DNA of 61,648 nt, the filler included, from Stramenopiles sp. TOSAG23-3 (lineage: Eukaryota): assembly GCA_900128585.1 (NCBI GenBank). It is 10 parts of 10 records of this genome, joined end to end, with 100 filler letters (N's around TTAATTAATTAA, not from the genome) between each part and the next. Parts side by side here need not be neighbours in the genome. Positions count along the whole stretch, not along the records: positions 49,483 to 55,516 come from LT643390.1; positions 55,617 to 61,648 come from LT643391.1; 8 more parts are not named here. One strand, given 5' to 3'. How positions within the stretch are numbered: the stretch's first letter is position 1; every line of letters starts with the position of its first letter. Under the pieces are notes generated by a model, which did not search any database, was not told the DNA's origin, and was given only the letters and a program-made list of their open reading frames with translations. Below are positions 54,934 to 61,648 of this stretch, in pieces. Both the position numbers and the translations under genes were made by a program.

Positions 54934-55617
54934 TGTTTTGGTTTATTCTATTTGGAAGGCGTAGTCTCATGAAACCATCCTTGAATTCATTTGCATACAA
55001 AGATGAAATCCTTGGCATTCCTTTCCTCTTTTCTTTTAACGATGGTCTGTGTATATATGATGTATATATTCATGTTTTTCATTGTTATCTGTATTTTATA
55101 TATATTAAACTCACTCACTCACAAAATATTATAAAAATATAAATATAAATAATAATAATAGGATTGACTGAATAATAATAAAAAATAATAATTAATACAT
55201 CATCTTCTCATCATATTTTAGTCTATCATATGTTACTACACTTTAAATTATAAATAAATTCATCTTCGATCACAACAGATCAGAAGAAAGAAGAAGAAAG
55301 AAGAAGAAGTATACGAATTTAATTAATAATTAAATACTATTTTATACATTCTTTCCTCCTATATAATGTATTATAGTTTATTTAATTAATTATTTTAAAT
55401 TGTATTTTAAATTTTAAATTATTAATAATAATAAAATATGATGGATGATGGATGATGTATTCTATCTTAAATTAAATATTAAATAGACTATAGTACTACT
55501 ATTGAATCTCATTTTGNNNNNNNNNNNNNNNNNNNNNNNNNNNNNNNNNNNNNNNNNNNNTTAATTAATTAANNNNNNNNNNNNNNNNNNNNNNNNNNNN
55601 NNNNNNNNNNNNNNNNG

Positions 55618-55650
55618 AAGAAGAAACGTAAGGTGAGCCCGAGGAAATAA
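55618..55650 (+). CDS. Probable 3' end of an upstream element ORF cut by the contig boundary (…KKKRKVSPRK*)
   Basis: AAG AAG AAA CGT AAG GTG AGC CCG AGG AAA TAA, ending 20 nt before the integrase ATG; only 10 codons are visible. Confidence 0.4.
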   Translation, partial: KKKRKVSPRK

Positions 55651-55670
55651 ATTTCTACTCGTATTATAAA

Positions 55671-57593
55671 ATGGCGAAACCGTACCTGGAGCTTACTAAA
55701 TTACAACGAGAATTAGTATTTGATATGATTAGAAATCAAGGCTATGCTGAAGGAGTCCACACATTATACCAACGTCTCAGGCGCGTATTTGGGAATAGGC
55801 CGCACCCCGCGATGAATAAGAAAGGAGAAATAGCATATAAAGACGATGGGGGAATTTACGAGCTAGAACCTCGGGACGAAGATTCGTATGAATATAACGG
55901 CGACAAATACGAGTACAAAACGAGAGAAGTAACCAGAAAGGGGGTTAAAAAAAGGGAACGCCGCTTATTACTACCGAATAGAAAGAGCATAGAAATATTT
56001 CTACGCAAGGACCCATCTCACCAAGTTGATAGGACAGTAAGACACGCCGTGGCGGGTGGGATTAAAACGCCGCCCAAATATGCGATTAAACCCGTAATTC
56101 CTAAAGCCAACATATTAGATATTATATTTTGCGACTCAATGAGGATGCCTAAAACAATATCGCTCGAAGACAATGCTGAATATTCATGGTGCTTCGTGAT
56201 GGTCGATGCTTTGAGTAAGATGATATTTGTAAAACCGCTGCAACTGCAGACGCAACTATCAACGACAACTAAAAAAAGACAGAGAATCACCGAAGAGGAA
56301 TCTGAAGAACAGTTCGATCCAAAAAGACGCCCGGCTTCTGATCAAACGTACAGGTATTTCCTAGAATTCATAAGGAGAATTAATAAGACGAGAAAGCACC
56401 ACGACCCTAAGCGGCAAGATGTATTTCCTCGCTTGGTGGTGTCGGATCGAGGATCGGAATTTATGGGGCCGTGGGTGGAAGGCCTGAATGAATTGAAGAA
56501 CAAATACAAGAAAACAAAAACCAATGGAGAGGATACGTATCCTTATTTTAATTATACCAAGACTCCGCTTGGACGATCGCAATATAATTCACTGGCTGAG
56601 AGCGCGGTAGGGATATGTAGACGGGCATTCTATCGAATTAATAGAGGCTATCAAGAACAACTTGAAAAAAGAACGGGAACGCGAAAGAGGTGGGTACCAA
56701 AAGACTGGCATACTGATACCCAGTCTGTCGATTTATATGATTGGACGCGCGACTGCGACGAAGTAATGCGGCGTTTGAACAGTCGGTATCATTCTACGAT
56801 TAAAACGACTCCCATAAATGCTCTCCTGGAGATTGGAATAAAGCGTAAGCAAGTAAAACAAAACATTGTGGACGTCGCAAATAAAAGATACAAGGACGTA
56901 AAACACAACTTGAATTTGCCGGGATTTTCTCCTAGTTCGCCCGTTACAGTCGGAGATTACGTACGCGTAAAGATAGCAAAAACGGGGGACATGGGCGTCA
57001 CATTTCACAAGAAAGGCGATACACGCAAACGAGCTACTAAATCGGCCTCAAACAATTGGTCGATCAATATATATAAGGTGGTTGACATGAAAGTATTGAA
57101 AAAGGGACAGCGAACGTATCGTGTAGAAAATATTGATCCGGATAGTAGCAAGCGAGTCCAAGGCTACTTGACGAGGGTGCAGGTTTTAAAAGTCCCACCG
57201 GATACGGTATTAGATTCGGGAAGGACAGTCAAAGACGAAGAAATATATTATAAGACGGAAGATGACGTTGATGAATCTGACGACGAAGAAGAAGAGACGG
57301 CCGAACTAACGGTGCAGCAAAAAGCAAACAAACTACTCCAGTACACGAAACGGGACTGGAACCAGGAGCTACGTGGAAAGACGTTTAAAAGCGACGATAA
57401 AACATTGGAAACAATAACGAATGTAGTATATCGTGGAATGATTTACAAATGGGTGATCGAGTACGAATCTGAGGATAAATCGGAATGGGAAGATTACTTA
57501 CCAGTCGTACTGGGCATGGCAAAGGGAGAAAATTGGTATAAGCCAGAGTATGATTTGATACTGAATAACAAGAAATTTCGACCTCGTAAATAG
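55671..57593 (+). CDS. Retroviral-like (rve, DDE) integrase of Polinton/Maverick/mavirus type
   Basis: IIFCDS (D1), CFVMVDALSKMIFVKPL, LVVSDRGSEF (D2), NSLAES (E), LNSRYHSTIKTTP, VGDYVRV...NNWS..IYKV...TYRV (Polinton integrase C-terminal pattern). Confidence 0.9.
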   Translation: MAKPYLELTKLQRELVFDMIRNQGYAEGVHTLYQRLRRVFGNRPHPAMNKKGEIAYKDDGGIYELEPRDEDSYEYNGDKYEYKTREVTRKGVKKRERRLLLPNRKSIEIFLRKDPSHQVDRTVRHAVAGGIKTPPKYAIKPVIPKANILDIIFCDSMRMPKTISLEDNAEYSWCFVMVDALSKMIFVKPLQLQTQLSTTTKKRQRITEEESEEQFDPKRRPASDQTYRYFLEFIRRINKTRKHHDPKRQDVFPRLVVSDRGSEFMGPWVEGLNELKNKYKKTKTNGEDTYPYFNYTKTPLGRSQYNSLAESAVGICRRAFYRINRGYQEQLEKRTGTRKRWVPKDWHTDTQSVDLYDWTRDCDEVMRRLNSRYHSTIKTTPINALLEIGIKRKQVKQNIVDVANKRYKDVKHNLNLPGFSPSSPVTVGDYVRVKIAKTGDMGVTFHKKGDTRKRATKSASNNWSINIYKVVDMKVLKKGQRTYRVENIDPDSSKRVQGYLTRVQVLKVPPDTVLDSGRTVKDEEIYYKTEDDVDESDDEEEETAELTVQQKANKLLQYTKRDWNQELRGKTFKSDDKTLETITNVVYRGMIYKWVIEYESEDKSEWEDYLPVVLGMAKGENWYKPEYDLILNNKKFRPRK

Positions 57594-57670
57594 ATTTCCG
57601 ATCTGGTACCCGGCTGACAAAAAAAAATCAGACCAAGTCATAAAACAAAAAATAAGTTTGCACTATAAAT

Positions 57671-58120
57671 ATGAAGGGAAAACCCAGGAAGACGTACCGT
57701 AGAAAAAAATTAGACATCGTGAAAACGCTCAAAGCGTATAAAAATAGGATCATGAGCTTGCCTCGTGATGAGTTTGAAGTTCTACGGGATAAATATATTT
57801 CGAGCTATGAAGTATGGGATACGTTTCAAAATGATGAGATACTTGAGGAGTTGCGGATGCGACACGGCACCAAATTTGATAACATTGCTTTTAGACTCTA
57901 TCTGGTGGCACGAGTCAAAGGAATTCCTCTCAAGGGAATTACAAGTCAAAAAAAATTACGGGGGAAGCGAGCGGGTGCTCTGAAAGAAGGTGAAAGTGAG
58001 GAGAGGGACTGCTTCTATGTTGGTCCAGCTTTAAATTTCGAGAACAGGGATAAACTTGAGAGAAGTGTATTTTCTATGAGATATGAAGATCGGAGATTTA
58101 TTCTTCAAGATCATAATTAG
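57671..58120 (+). CDS. Hypothetical basic protein (element ORFan)
   Basis: 149-aa ATG ORF preceded by TATAAAT; fills the space between integrase and helicase; 3' end overlaps the convergent gene. Confidence 0.7.
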   Translation: MKGKPRKTYRRKKLDIVKTLKAYKNRIMSLPRDEFEVLRDKYISSYEVWDTFQNDEILEELRMRHGTKFDNIAFRLYLVARVKGIPLKGITSQKKLRGKRAGALKEGESEERDCFYVGPALNFENRDKLERSVFSMRYEDRRFILQDHN

Positions 58121-60734
58121 AAACATCCAGTTCCTTTACGAGTTGATCCAGCCGAAGGTGATACTTATAGCCCTGTGGAACGCGCTTTTTGATTACACCA
58201 TAATCGCTTTCCATTGCAGTTAATTTTGAGCAAAAGTTTTTCCTTGAATATTCTTGCGCGGCGGCATGCGTAAGCCTTTTTTCCTTGCGAAGATACAGTT
58301 GAAACAAATCAAATATACTGTTGGCGGTCATCGAGAGCACGTACGAACTGTGTTCGCGCCCATCAGGGTACGAGCTGCGCTCGCGCCCGTCAGGGTACGA
58401 GCTGCGTCCATGGTCGTCGGACTGGTTGAGTACGAACGATTCTCTGAGTTTTTCACTCCACCAGTTGTCTTGGTTGTTGACAATACGAGCTACGCTCGCG
58501 TCAGCAAAGCTGGTACGGACTTCGTTCTCGCCAACGTCGTTGGTACCCTGATGGGCGCGAGCGCAGCTGGTACGAGCTACGCTCGCGCCAGCAAAGCTGG
58601 TACGGACTTCTTTTTGAATTGTGAATTCAAGATCAAAATGAGCATGTGACAGATCGGTAGAAGAGTCATCAACTACTTTAAAAAACCAATATTCGAATAC
58701 TTTTAATTTACATTCTTCGCTCTCTTCTCTTAATTTCTTTATCGCTCCTTCCTTATCAGGATCGAACATGGATTGGTCTTCATTGATCTCACTTTCAGCC
58801 CTTGAAAGCTCATCGTCCATTTCCTTGTAAAGTCGTGGCATTTCCTCCTTTGTCCTTAAATAGCCTTCTAGTACATATTGCAAAAACCCCTCATAATGGG
58901 GCTGGTTTTGATCTGACATAGTCCTTTGAAATTTGGAGAAATATTGATCAATCTCGGTGAACGGTTCCTCTGGAACGTCTTTTACGTTCATGAAATATTG
59001 ATAGATACTGTATAAAGCGTTCTTGTTTTTAAGAATATCGCGCACGTACATAGTCCAGAATTGTACGTCATTTTTGTATGTACTCTTACCATACATGGTT
59101 ACATGTCGGCGCTGACCACGGGCGTCTTCTGTTCTCGGTTCCTCGTTATTTGTTAGAATAATAAACCGATGAATGCTTTTCATCACAACTTGCTGACCGT
59201 ATTTTGAATTTGTAAATATTTGGTCGGCCGTAATTAGACTATTTAAGACACCAGTAGACCCTCTCGTATTAGACTTCCCTATTTCTGAAAGATGAACGAG
59301 CATACATTCTAAGAGTTGTCCGTTAAATTCGCCCCAAACCTCTCGTTCGGGTGAGGTGGATTCTAAGCGCTTTCTTGGTCCCATAATCGCCACCAATGCT
59401 TCTAGGAACTTGTCTTTCCCAATACCCATCTGGCCAATCATACAGAGTGCTACTCCAGGTTTAATGTGCGGGTACTGAAAGATTTGAGCTATCCATTTCT
59501 CTGCGAACCGATAAGTATTCTCTTCGTTATTACATAGTGTTTTCAAAAGACCCAAGTAAATATCCACTTTAGCTTGATCGTATTCGTAATTTTCAAGGTC
59601 CCACGTCGTACATTCAAAGGGTTTCCACATATTGTAGATATGGTTAGGACACGTCTCCTTTTCCGTGAACACCCCGAATTCCTCCTTTACTGGCATATCT
59701 CTGTCTTTAAGCCATCTCTTGATGAATTGCTTTTCGATGATCGTGCCGTCGTTGTTTTTCTCTTCATACGTCAGATTTCCAAAGGCGACATACAACTGGT
59801 CTTGTTTGTAAACGTATTGTTGCTCGGTCAATGTAATCACGAAACACGGCGGTTGTAGTATTTTGCTTGCGCCGTAAATTGTCTCGAATTCCTTTTTCTT
59901 GTCAGCATAAGACACTGATATTTCCATCGATTCTTTTGGGACAAAATCCTCCGGGATCTGCACGTCGCTTTTGTTCTCCTTTTCGACCCATGTCATCGGA
60001 CCGGGGAGATTACAAAGTTTTGCGTCTACGTCGTACATGAACCCGTCAAAACATAGAGGTCCTAGTTTGCTACGATCCAAACCCTCTATCACAGCTTGAA
60101 GATAATTATTTTCTAGATCGCACCAATAAGCGTTTATGCAGCTCGACATGGGATTAAAGCCATCTTTATAGTTATACTTTGTTTTGAGTTCTTGGAACAT
60201 TATTTTCTTATTCTTGCACACTTCTCGTGCCAGTTTCTTTACTTTCTCGCTCTCGGGTTTTATTTTGTAATCCGGGCGATCAGTGTTGAACAGAGCGAGC
60301 ATCCACTTTTTCCCGACTCCATGTTCTTGTAAAAACGCATCCCGGTTTGAGCAGTAATTTTGCAGTTCCGGGCAATCTAAGCCCTTTTCCTGGCAGGCGA
60401 GTAACATAATGTTTGGGTGAGCGTTCGACATGTCCCAGTCTCGGTAAATTCCTTCTGTTAAAAACATACGTACTGACCTACGCATATTCTGGATACCACC
60501 TTTGGCGAACAAACGACCATTTGTCGGATTTAATTTGGAGTGCGAATATTCTACTTCTAAATTGCAGCCAGCTGAAAGAGATTTCTTGCAGTAGGAGGCT
60601 ATATTCTTGAAAGTAAAATCTTTTTGATCATTATCGTCGTCGTCGGTTTTAGGGAACAACTTTTCAAATTCGTATTTTTTGAGGCTCAACAAATATTTAC
60701 ACTTTTCCATATTTATTTTTTCAAAAATTTTCAT
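58098..60734 (-). CDS. PolA-like transposon-viral primase-polymerase (TVpol) fused to a superfamily 3 helicase
   Basis: N-terminal GRLFA..GIQNM.RSVR, motif A RDWDMSNAHP, motif B KKWMLALFN, motif C LCFDGFM; C-terminal Walker A GQMGIGKD, Walker B MLVHLSE, motif C RFIILTNN, Arg finger QRRH. Confidence 0.85.
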   Translation of the reverse strand: MKIFEKINMEKCKYLLSLKKYEFEKLFPKTDDDDNDQKDFTFKNIASYCKKSLSAGCNLEVEYSHSKLNPTNGRLFAKGGIQNMRRSVRMFLTEGIYRDWDMSNAHPNIMLLACQEKGLDCPELQNYCSNRDAFLQEHGVGKKWMLALFNTDRPDYKIKPESEKVKKLAREVCKNKKIMFQELKTKYNYKDGFNPMSSCINAYWCDLENNYLQAVIEGLDRSKLGPLCFDGFMYDVDAKLCNLPGPMTWVEKENKSDVQIPEDFVPKESMEISVSYADKKKEFETIYGASKILQPPCFVITLTEQQYVYKQDQLYVAFGNLTYEEKNNDGTIIEKQFIKRWLKDRDMPVKEEFGVFTEKETCPNHIYNMWKPFECTTWDLENYEYDQAKVDIYLGLLKTLCNNEENTYRFAEKWIAQIFQYPHIKPGVALCMIGQMGIGKDKFLEALVAIMGPRKRLESTSPEREVWGEFNGQLLECMLVHLSEIGKSNTRGSTGVLNSLITADQIFTNSKYGQQVVMKSIHRFIILTNNEEPRTEDARGQRRHVTMYGKSTYKNDVQFWTMYVRDILKNKNALYSIYQYFMNVKDVPEEPFTEIDQYFSKFQRTMSDQNQPHYEGFLQYVLEGYLRTKEEMPRLYKEMDDELSRAESEINEDQSMFDPDKEGAIKKLREESEECKLKVFEYWFFKVVDDSSTDLSHAHFDLEFTIQKEVRTSFAGASVARTSCARAHQGTNDVGENEVRTSFADASVARIVNNQDNWWSEKLRESFVLNQSDDHGRSSYPDGRERSSYPDGREHSSYVLSMTANSIFDLFQLYLRKEKRLTHAAAQEYSRKNFCSKLTAMESDYGVIKKRVPQGYKYHLRLDQLVKELDVSNYDLEE
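58341..58610. repeat. Two clusters of 27/30-bp GTAC-bounded double-hairpin modules inserted in frame in the primase-helicase gene
   Basis: Modules start at 58341, 58368, 58395 (degenerate), 58483, 58513, 58543 (inverted), 58570 and 58600 (partial); they translate as the RSSYPDGRE and EVRTSFA.ASVAR repeats. Confidence 0.85.
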
Positions 60735-60819
60735 GCTACTTGTGGTTGGGTTGTCTTAATCTACAAACAGAAAAAAATCGGTGAATTTATTCAGTCTGAA
60801 CGCACCAAAAAAAAACAAT

Positions 60820-61119
60820 TTAAATTCCCTTCAGACGTCTATGGTTATAATTTCTAGGCGTGCGCGTAGACGAGAAGAAATTATACACGTCATCCACGGA
60901 AAAATCGCGACCGGATTCCTGCAAGACAGCGGCGATGCATTTGACGTTAGGTGCCAGAACCGGATCCTGGCGTTCTGGAAGCAATATCTTATATTTTGCT
61001 TTCTTTCTTATTTCATAAATACACATGTCGTCGCCACAATTTCTTAGACCACGAATTACGATTTCGGGGTGACCATTTTCGTCCGAACTGACGCCGGCCG
61101 ACAACACACCAGCTGCCAT
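60820..61119 (-). CDS. Hypothetical protein (element ORFan), first gene inward from the repeat array
   Basis: 99-aa ATG ORF, same strand and directly upstream of the primase-helicase, preceded by an A-rich TATATAACAACAAATAAAAA leader. Confidence 0.65.
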   Translation of the reverse strand: MAAGVLSAGVSSDENGHPEIVIRGLRNCGDDMCIYEIRKKAKYKILLPERQDPVLAPNVKCIAAVLQESGRDFSVDDVYNFFSSTRTPRNYNHRRLKGI

Positions 61120-61173
61120 TTTTTATTTGTTGTTATATAAAATATATTTATTTTTCAACGCGGTCTTTTTTTC

Positions 61174-61648
61174 GTTAATGTAGGGTTGTAGGATGTAGGG
61201 TCTGAAATTGGATATAGCTAAAAAAATAAAAAAAAAACTTGCTTTCTTGCGTCCACAAAAAGCAAGTATTTATTTGTAAATTTCCTATAGATATAGACCC
61301 CCCCTATCCTACATCCCTACACAGGGGAGAACCAACCGTAGAGGGGGGAGACAACCGTAGAGGGGAACGCAAAAAACAAGTTTTTTTTTTACTTTTTTAG
61401 CCACATCCCCAAAACAGACCCTACATCCTACAACCCTACATAACGCAAAAAACAAGTTTTTTTTTTATATTTTTTGCCATATCCCCAAAACAGACCCTAC
61501 ATCCTACATCCCTACATAACGCAAAAAACAAGTTTTTTTTTTACTTTTTTTGCCATATCCCCAAAACAGACCCTACATCCTACATCCCTACATAACGCAA
61601 AAAACAAGTTTTTTTTTTATATTTTTTGCCACATCCCCCAAAAAAACC
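61174..61648. repeat. 76-bp tandem repeat array (about 3.7 copies) with one inverted and one degenerate copy; candidate terminal repeat or replication origin
   Basis: Units start at 61366, 61442, 61518 and 61594 (AACGCAAAAAACAAGT10...GCCA.ATCCCCAAAACAGACCCTACATCCTACA.CCCTACAT); inverted diverged copy at 61174-61252; degenerate copy at about 61256-61322; CAACCGTAGAGGGG twice at 61333-61365. Confidence 0.9.

Follow-up and report, generated by a model that had tools for sequence, protein, structure and literature searches.

What kind of element places a retroviral-type integrase next to a virophage-type replicase on a contig of 6 kb? The question is raised by the contig LT643391.1 of Stramenopiles sp. 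TOSAG23-3 (assembly GCA_900128585.1), which forms positions 55617-61648, the last piece, of the 61,648-nucleotide stretch of DNA analysed here (the window). A preliminary description had taken it for a mosaic, probably endogenous relative of polinton-like viruses (PLVs) as well as of virophages, in which an rve integrase is combined with TVpol, a family-A-polymerase-like domain, fused to a superfamily-3 helicase (TVpol-S3H). We consider it most likely that this contig represents the left-hand module, for integration and replication, of an integrating PLV (phylum Preplasmiviricota) of a marine protist.

In 2015 the PLVs were said to be without rve integrase, with one exception, and TVpol-S3H was reported from PgVV, PLV-YSL1, PLV-RED1 and Sputnik (PMC4642659). 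The distinction was later blurred: 28 viruses with Polinton-type gene sets across capsid groups were described, and the helicase-primase was found to go typically with a tyrosine recombinase (PMC7805220).

Results

A divergent integrase of the rve superfamily

Taken alone, the protein P0001 matched the Pfam rve profile with E 0.0029 and 18.3 bits, which is below the cut-off of 32.6 bits, and PDB sequence searches with P0001 and with its profile returned chance-level matches only. Fifteen homologues were present in a set of 5.8 billion proteins; their precomputed Pfam annotation was empty in 14 cases, and for the remaining one it named only an unrelated amidase. Across 16 aligned integrases D259 and E310 are invariant and D155 nearly so, and 7 of the 16 family members reached rve at E<=0.1. 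Searching 1.84 billion proteins with the family profile gave 267 representatives at E<=0.001. From the 150 matches listed of these 267 we chose 28 distant full-length relatives, 18 of which are Pfam rve proteins (best E 3e-17) and 6 rve_3; one distant relative has an rve plus chromodomain (Chromo) architecture. When the family profile was aligned by hhalign with that of 12 Pfam-positive rve relatives, the match had a probability of 99.9% and E 4.8e-33 over 319 columns. D155, D259 and E310 fell in register with D55, D121 and E156, which are invariant in the rve set, and similarity extended through the SH3-like C-terminal region (GDYVR...). The first two catalytic residues of P0001 (D155, D259) are separated by a long low-complexity insertion, and no chromodomain was detected in the protein at E<=1 (Pfam). 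As judged from these alignments, P0001 is a divergent retroviral-type DDE integrase with a predicted complete catalytic triad.

Two scans of IMG/VR, one with the single integrase and one with the integrase alignment A3, gave 6 and 600 pattern matches, respectively, none of which was confirmed. A tblastn search with seven integrase and small open reading frame (ORF) queries against the 80 IMG/VR replicase loci described below did not yield a match either. The source name of one member of a P0023-related integrase cluster points to the 0.1-0.22 micrometre size fraction, which hints, as a lead only, that some integrase relatives occur in virus-sized particles or free DNA.

A TVpol-helicase replicase

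The largest gene of the contig encodes the protein P0002. Its residues 411-564 matched DUF5906 (E 1.1e-13) and the VapE-like family (4.9e-06) in Pfam, and residues 393-573 matched the PDB entry 6k9c, 'Primase', with E 7.9e-10. The helicase core carries the Walker A (GIGKDK) and Walker B (LSE) motifs and the conserved N529 and R542/R543. The N-terminal 390 residues had no Pfam match, though they are conserved; D99, D101 and D230 are invariant across 19 replicase sequences. An alignment-based model had a mean pLDDT of 85.4, and in a Foldseek search of the PDB the top rows were nearly all family-A DNA polymerases (Klenow, Bst, Taq, apicoplast, DpoZ), the best E of the TVpol model being a weak 5.8e-3. 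With VIA-align, model residues 1-257 could be superposed on Pol theta, Taq, Klenow and T7 with Z scores of 13.4-11.7 (approximately 235 residues, root-mean-square deviation 3.3-4.4). Among the named matches in BFVD, the best were to the helicase/primase/polymerase of Qinghai Lake virophage (5.5e-16) and to the DNA replication protein of Zamilon (1.1e-13). In a language-model comparison the nearest clusters were 90-100% viral, most often Preplasmiviricota. By sequence and by model, P0002 is a predicted TVpol-S3H protein, that is, a family-A-polymerase-like domain fused to a superfamily-3 helicase. Both enzyme assignments of the preliminary description, an rve integrase and a TVpol-superfamily-3 replicase on one compact contig, are thus upheld (hhalign, fold comparison, BFVD), and the virophage matches and Preplasmiviricota clusters support the proposed kinship with PLVs and virophages.

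The C-terminal tail of the replicase differs between copies in the number of its 27- and 30-nt repeats, which are shorter or missing in P0005 and P0006, and metagenome contigs skip 63-97 nt in this region. A replicase scan of IMG/VR found 325 stretches matching the patterns; 152 encode a relative, and the best 80 of these were kept. They share 23-32% identity with the replicase; the contigs that carry them often measure 16-28 kb and in a few cases 64-353 kb. The integrase and the two small proteins of the contig were found in none of these best 80 loci. Two IMG/VR contigs, L011/L012 (41.7 kb) and L077/L078 (28.8 kb), contain the TVpol-S3H gene twice, inverted and towards both ends, so that in them this gene may form part of long terminal inverted repeats.

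Exchange of the replicase between near-identical copies

When metagenomes were scanned with a nine-sequence integrase alignment, 267 stretches matched the patterns, and a relative is encoded in 29 of them. The contig and the 17 longest of the 29 loci make up the comparison set of 18 sources used below; twelve loci of <=3.9 kb (L085, L087, L100-L109) were left out of it. ORFs of at least 80 amino acids were clustered by BLASTP at E<1e-6 (clusters are designated by C, loci by L). Four contigs constitute the contig's own subfamily: the contig itself (6.0 kb), L081 (11.9 kb seen of the 21.0-kb contig JACLAA010005678.1), L082 (10.6 kb) and L092 (3.8 kb). The integrases of L081 and L082 are 96-97%, that of L092 89% identical to P0001, and the gene order of the contig is repeated in L081 and L092, which come from other assemblies.

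The nucleotide identity between the contig and L081 is 85-100% in the integrase and C2 (the first small gene), 55-75% in the replicase and 91-97% in C5 (the second small gene), and drops again in the repeats. As the dip among the genes is confined to the replicase, the replicase gene alone has been exchanged, by recombination between otherwise near-identical copies. The mosaic character suspected earlier is thereby upheld, and the family provides a clear natural example of replicases being swapped while their place in the genome stays fixed.

Three pairwise comparisons of the integrase gave a ratio of nonsynonymous to synonymous substitution rates (dN/dS) of 0.09-0.11; for C2, compared with L081, it was 0.07. 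All genes for which it was computed (0.07-0.11) are under purifying selection, which adds constraint to the previously noted, and here confirmed, intactness of the ORFs.

The contig is present at least partly in 20 of the 24 sequencing runs listed, four of which are possible sources of it. Nine marine or seawater metagenome runs from five studies carry 23-44% of its sampled words. In X5, the one of the nine that we examined, there is an integrase of 93% identity that has the same gene upstream of it but a different downstream sequence. Two poly-A RNA runs with the same species label (X21, X22; approximately 6% of each) gave 0 reads, a result that is uninformative on expression or presence.

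Termini and probable chromosomal integration

The left end could be studied in L082. The guanine-plus-cytosine (GC) content of this contig is 0.55-0.77 until about 7 kb, then about 0.42. The GC-rich part, which has no ORF in common with any other integrase locus compared, contains genes for an AAA ATPase, a MYND/RING/TPR protein and a PHD-FkbM methyltransferase. Between the GC-rich part and a 323-aa gene there is a perfect 30-nt palindrome (L082:6814-6843) with two copies of an approximately 120-nt unit. The same palindrome and unit, inverted, follow straight after an integrase fragment in L107 and L108, where the palindrome sits exactly at the border between AT-rich DNA and DNA of 68-89% GC. 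Thus, the palindrome and repeats were seen at one left end and, inverted, at the right ends of remnants, one terminus per copy.

We read the borders in L082, L107 and L108 as the inverted termini of elements integrated in GC-rich cellular DNA, and L107 and L108 as deleted remnants of elements. Composition junctions that carry the palindrome and the repeats argue for chromosomal integration, in support of the endogenous state proposed in the preliminary description. In contrast, its expectation that capsid and ATPase genes lie beyond the left contig end does not agree with L082, the closest longer contig: left of the integrase there is only the 323-aa gene, followed by terminal repeats of about 430 nt and then by the GC-rich flank. 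The left terminus in L082 is only about 1.4 kb upstream of the integrase, therefore any morphogenetic genes must be located rightward. The 323-aa gene, whose product is P0219, had no Pfam or PHROG match; the upstream-gene sequence also forms the loose end of a marine metagenome contig.

Repeats at the right end

The right end of the contig is occupied by an array of a 76-nt unit (3.6 copies at 61366-61643, Tandem Repeats Finder (TRF) score 491). Every unit has an A/T run and three heptamers of the ATGTAGG(G) type. At 61167-61252, 114 nt before the array, the unit occurs once in inverted orientation; the inverted repeats I3-I13 are 86-89% complementary, and blastn found 85-86% identity between inverted copy and array over 88 nt. 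Outside the contig, the window contains no counterpart of the 76-nt repeat, and L081 just a 30-nt echo of it. Read depth in the probable source run climbs from 94 to 436 within the array, and one contig exits the array into unique sequence at 61479.

At the equivalent place L081 has analogous, diverged repeats (ATGTTGG), which are internal. Beyond them this contig continues for 6.6 kb with AT-rich DNA and repeated intergenic motifs, and encodes a 2-oxoglutarate (2OG)-Fe(II) oxygenase as well as C26 and C6, the latter two common to other family members; the 30-nt palindrome was not found in this extension. Because L081 runs on past the equivalent repeats, the array at the contig end is an internal assembly break. 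The repeat-rich end noted previously is real as an array, but is probably not the terminus of the element. Its position and its divergence together with the replicase suggest that the array may be an origin or promoter region cognate to the replicase.

The oxygenase gene of L081 (AlkB-like; L081:7049-8985) lies between direct repeats of about 500 nt with TTTTCTAGAAATTTTCTAGA-type motifs. These may be repeated promoters or mark a duplicated cassette site.

Gene sets of related elements

In 6 of the 18 sources the replicase is either of the TVpol-S3H type or a protein of 1,255 aa whose N-terminus is TVpol-like (35% identical). Four sources encode the DUF5906 helicase C11, in three of them beside the 600-aa protein C16. 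In the latter we noticed by eye motifs (hFDFD, SLHIII) that may be primase-like. Thus TVpol-S3H, a long TVpol-like protein and a putative archaeo-eukaryotic primase (AEP)-like primase (by eye) with a separate helicase can all occur beside one integrase family. C16 (L098:6723-8525, L091:4354-6174) also has a C-terminal Cys/His cluster, and a separate DUF5906 helicase gene adjoins it. It had been considered as a capsid protein; Pfam and PDB searches were empty, and the candidate was dropped on the by-eye motifs. Another rejected candidate was L084:4230-5276 as a TVpol: it matched two replicase loci in tblastn (1.9e-6), but hhalign with the TVpol alignment gave E 0.09 and a probability of 0.6%.

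The protein C13 (approximately 400 aa) is encoded in 4 of the 18 sources, beside the same integrase family. When its model was compared with 48,161 PDB chains, the top eight were all double-jelly-roll capsid or scaffold proteins with Z scores of 11.0-9.9 (Faustovirus, ASFV p72, Sputnik, Orf virus scaffold, mavirus, two chains of PBCV-1, EhV-201), followed by PRD1 and the adenovirus hexon, then by unrelated rows at Z of about 6. The BFVD matches included capsids of virophages, mavirus and giant viruses, together with a protein of Tetraselmis viridis virus S1. C13 is thus a candidate double-jelly-roll capsid protein. Next to it is the gene of C17, a P-loop protein of 220-238 aa with Walker A and B motifs; two of its three members matched Pox_A32 (best E 0.0072), and the top PDB match was a DUF87 protein (0.032). 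In L088 the order integrase-C2-C9-C10-C17-C13 is contained in 4.7 kb, integrase-C2 being 1 kb from C17/C13. The 802-aa C24 has a Peptidase_S74 fibre chaperone domain (4e-12), and a collagen-repeat ORF flanks the capsid gene in L099. In IMG/VR a single relative of C13 was found (24% identical); it lies on the 23.7-kb contig L110, which also carries a C7 homologue and a TVpol-type replicase. No penton or protease was identified among the scanned ORFs, and the Pfam matches of the four ORFs of the contig and of 43 ORFs from related loci did not include a polymerase B family. As for the morphogenetic genes looked for among neighbouring ORFs, capsid and ATPase candidates do exist in relatives, whereas none was seen in the contig's own subfamily.

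Some further genes of the family deserve mention. C3 (about 392 aa; L098:1915-3093 and 8 other loci, 9 of the 18 sources) almost always adjoins C2 and has 45 invariant residues. No Pfam, PHROGs or PDB match was found for it, and no other unexplained gene of the family is as widespread. C19 (L098:116-1399, L094:6423-7694) contains an Agenet domain of the chromatin-reader type (E 2e-06 to 3e-07), which is unusual cargo for a small virus-like element. In L099 the integrase is in two opposite-strand pieces about 5 kb apart (L099:5088-6542 and L099:11353-11742), with family genes between and beyond them, which looks like an inversion or two abutting elements.

The contig and its small genes

The window consists of about ten separate contigs of about 6.1 kb each, chained by N44-TTAATTAATTAA-N44 linkers; a 22-N gap at 8935-8956 falls within one piece. 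Adjoining window pieces are not genomic neighbours. The contig at 55617-61648 stands alone, with a linker on its left; it is 6,032 bp long, has 41.3% GC and is occupied by four intact ORFs (Table 1). The remaining pieces encode eukaryote-type domains (MINDY deubiquitinase, WW, fibronectin-III, NHL), and sequence comparison did not find the genes of the element in them. Neither tRNA genes nor Rfam families were found in the 6,032 bp.

Table 1. Features of the contig at 55617-61648 (window coordinates)
Feature	Position	Strand	Basis or remark
End of cut-off upstream gene, last ten codons (KKKRKVSPRK) and stop	55617..55650	+	homologous to 323-aa L082:7241-8212 (P0219)
DDE integrase P0001 (predicted), 640 aa	55671..57593	+	rve superfamily
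Small protein P0003 (cluster C2), 149 aa	57671..58120	+	homologues in relatives
Replicase P0002 (predicted), 878 aa: TVpol, D5/DUF5906 superfamily-3 helicase, variable C-terminal tail	58098..60734	-	
In-frame GC-rich tandem repeats (27-nt and 30-nt units), replicase C-terminal tail	58341..58604	-	
Superfamily-3 helicase core, replicase residues 393-573	59016..59558	-	DUF5906, PDB match, motifs
TVpol domain, replicase residues 1-257	59964..60734	-	fold comparison
Small protein P0004 (cluster C5), 99 aa	60820..61119	-	homologues in relatives
Single inverted repeat-unit copy, upstream of leftward genes	61167..61252	.	inverted-repeat search, blastn
76-nt tandem array reaching contig end	61366..61648	.	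TRF: 61366-61643

The two small genes had been regarded as ORFans, a view that the comparison set does not bear out. Homologues of C2 are encoded in 13 of the 18 integrase-bearing sources (34-93% identity) and those of C5 in 6 (30-95%). Neither has a Pfam or PHROG match. C2 has a basic N-terminus and adjoins or sits close to the integrase in related elements; in the contig its final 23 nt are shared with the 3' end of the gene for the replicase. Since both recur beside related integrases, they are conserved integrase partners rather than ORFans.

One Logan contig from the probable source run spans 55617-60777 with zero differences. A second contig of the same run enters the integrase gene at position 57282 from an unrelated upstream sequence (a 255-nt loose end), which suggests that the sample holds another copy, rearranged or variant. 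Relative to the window, a 26-nt insertion at position 60826 is present both in contigs of the probable source run and in those of a marine metagenome. The insertion site is two codons ahead of the stop of the 99-aa ORF, thus the C-terminus of this ORF in the window may be an assembly variant.

Discussion

With a probability of roughly 0.7, we consider the contig to be a fragment of an integrating PLV that is under purifying selection and has a terminus-proximal integrase, a swapped-in TVpol-S3H replicase and capsid genes expected rightward. In such a virus the integrase would act on the inverted termini and, through cut-and-paste DDE chemistry, place the linear genome in a chromosome of the host. 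The TVpol-helicase would prime and unwind at an origin, probably the heptamer-bearing 76-nt array beside its own promoter. The remaining genome would be found rightward of the array on other contigs, and this part would carry double-jelly-roll capsid, penton, A32-like ATPase and fibre genes as in relatives.

Several findings weigh against this interpretation. We did not find a right terminus or target-site duplications. As far as the four subfamily contigs could be followed, they showed no gene for a capsid, penton, ATPase or protease, and the capsid-bearing relatives share just 37-45% integrase identity with the contig. The model of C13 is of low confidence (pLDDT 48.7), therefore the capsid assignment rests on the consistency of the match list; the assignment of C17 as a candidate A32-like ATPase is weak. 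It must also be noted that the integrase family was not found in IMG/VR by the two scans and the tblastn search of 80 loci, which counts against the PLV interpretation because a frequently packaged virus might be expected there.

Some of these points would suit a capsid-less mobile element, a PLV-derived transposon or linear plasmid with no genes other than those for integrase and replicase and some small ones. Such an element would move alone or be packaged in trans by related viruses, in the way of transpovirons, which are linear plasmids of giant viruses, about 7 kb in length (PMC3671162). The four subfamily contigs without morphogenetic gene, and the failure to detect the integrase family in IMG/VR at the sensitivity used, are consistent with this possibility, and so is the size of the public-assembly contigs with near-identical proteins, all of which are <=5.9 kb. 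It has also been suggested that PolA/AEP replicase genes may mobilise independently (preprint 10.64898/2026.10.13.758929). However, short contigs are to be expected because repeats and variant copies break the assembly, as indicated by the loose ends, the depth jumps and the mosaic. Moreover, L081 extends for at least 11.9 kb from the integrase, remaining AT-rich, repeat-punctuated and element-like in composition, with two genes common to capsid-bearing relatives and no terminus reached, and the closest other subfamily (L088) does have an ATPase candidate and a capsid gene beside integrase-C2. There is, in our opinion, a small but real chance that the element is of the capsid-less kind. A more specific form of this idea, to which we give a slim chance, is that the subfamily lost its capsid module and became a compact, host-integrating satellite made up of integrase and replicase, with palindromic, hairpin-like ends, which depends on capsid-bearing relatives for packaging or mobilisation in trans. 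In it the replicase and the heptamer-bearing origin repeats would be swapped between copies as one cassette. If true, the satellite would be a DDE-integrase-equipped counterpart of transpovirons.

It is improbable that the contig comes from the genome of a giant virus (Nucleocytoviricota) or from that of a free virophage outside the cell chromosome. Such an origin could explain why IMG/VR relatives of the replicase occur on 64-353 kb contigs and in GVMAG-named records, why the replicase fold matched a Pyramimonas orientalis virus protein in BFVD (E 4.0e-13), and why the AAA ATPase of the L082 flank is 43% identical to genes on the IMG/VR loci L025 (330-kb contig) and L051 (12-kb contig). But 43% identity over 139 residues of an AAA domain is not diagnostic. 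Giant viruses are usually AT-rich, whereas the flanks of L082, L107 and L108 have 55-81% GC and, with their MYND/RING/TPR and PHD-methyltransferase genes, read as cellular. The same 30-nt palindrome is found at the composition border in three contigs, and a DDE integrase under selection implies an integrated phase. The chance that we are dealing with an assembly chimera or a decayed relic without present function is close to negligible. It is true that the contig ends in repeats and that a second variant in the source run joins at 57282, but a single Logan contig covers most of the locus without a difference, the gene order recurs in other assemblies, and the four ORFs are intact with the low dN/dS values given above.

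An integrating PLV is thus the interpretation that we prefer, and some practical consequences follow from the data. As the integrase was missed by standard profiles and by two IMG/VR scans, surveys based on rve profiles or on viromes undercount such elements. Replicase swapping could help to map which non-coding repeats are the cognate origins, and the palindromic termini with their sharp composition junctions are ready markers for insertion sites.

Comparison with known systems

It is instructive to compare the contig with transpovirons. Like these, the visible piece is small, encodes a helicase-containing replicase and has repeats at an end. Unlike them, its related copies are integrated in GC-rich cellular-looking DNA, and transpovirons are not known to have a DDE integrase. 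Their helicase is of superfamily 1 and is fused to an inactivated polymerase B (PMC5499653).

With PgVV-group PLVs and Sputnik/Zamilon-type virophages the contig shares the N-terminal family-A-polymerase-like domain joined to a superfamily-3 helicase (PMC4642659; 10.1101/2022.07.28.501842). The fold matches to Zamilon and Qinghai Lake virophage proteins have E 1e-13 to 5e-16, and the phylum-level neighbourhood is likewise shared. The replicase of the contig differs in its long C-terminal tail with expanding in-frame repeats, and its identity to the IMG/VR relatives is only 23-32%. Furthermore, the replicase of PgVV is paired with an OLV11-like tyrosine recombinase, that of the contig with a DDE integrase. 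In the latter respect, and in the location of the integrase near a terminus, the probable inverted termini and the probable chromosomal integration in a protist, the element resembles Polintons/Mavericks and mavirus-type virophages; the rve plus chromodomain architecture of one distant integrase relative is a further resemblance. It differs from Polintons/Mavericks in that the replicase is TVpol-S3H, a protein-primed polymerase B not having been seen among the scanned ORFs, and in that the integrase, below the Pfam cut-off, has a long insertion between its first two catalytic residues and no detected chromodomain.

A further parallel is provided by the rve-integrase PLVs of cryptophytes, which are likewise integrated, have terminal inverted repeats and phage-type fibre proteins, and carry swappable replicases including TVpol-S3H (PMC12220804). 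Among the 1,193 complete cryptophyte and chrysophyte elements described there, rve integrases are dominant in some clusters, whereas the cluster dominated by TVpol-S3H mostly has tyrosine recombinases, the rve integrase occurring in 2 of its 298 members. In contrast to that cluster, the rve family studied here is found repeatedly with TVpol-type replicases (6 of the 18 sources). Replicases are also described as widely exchanged modules (10.64898/2026.10.13.758929). Considering the mosaicism documented in these two sources, the rarity that the preliminary description ascribed to the rve/TVpol pairing was overstated: the pairing is the less common one, inside documented mosaicism. The contig represents a little-known marine lineage of a well-known kind, the polinton-like viruses, and leaves the current picture of these viruses unchanged.

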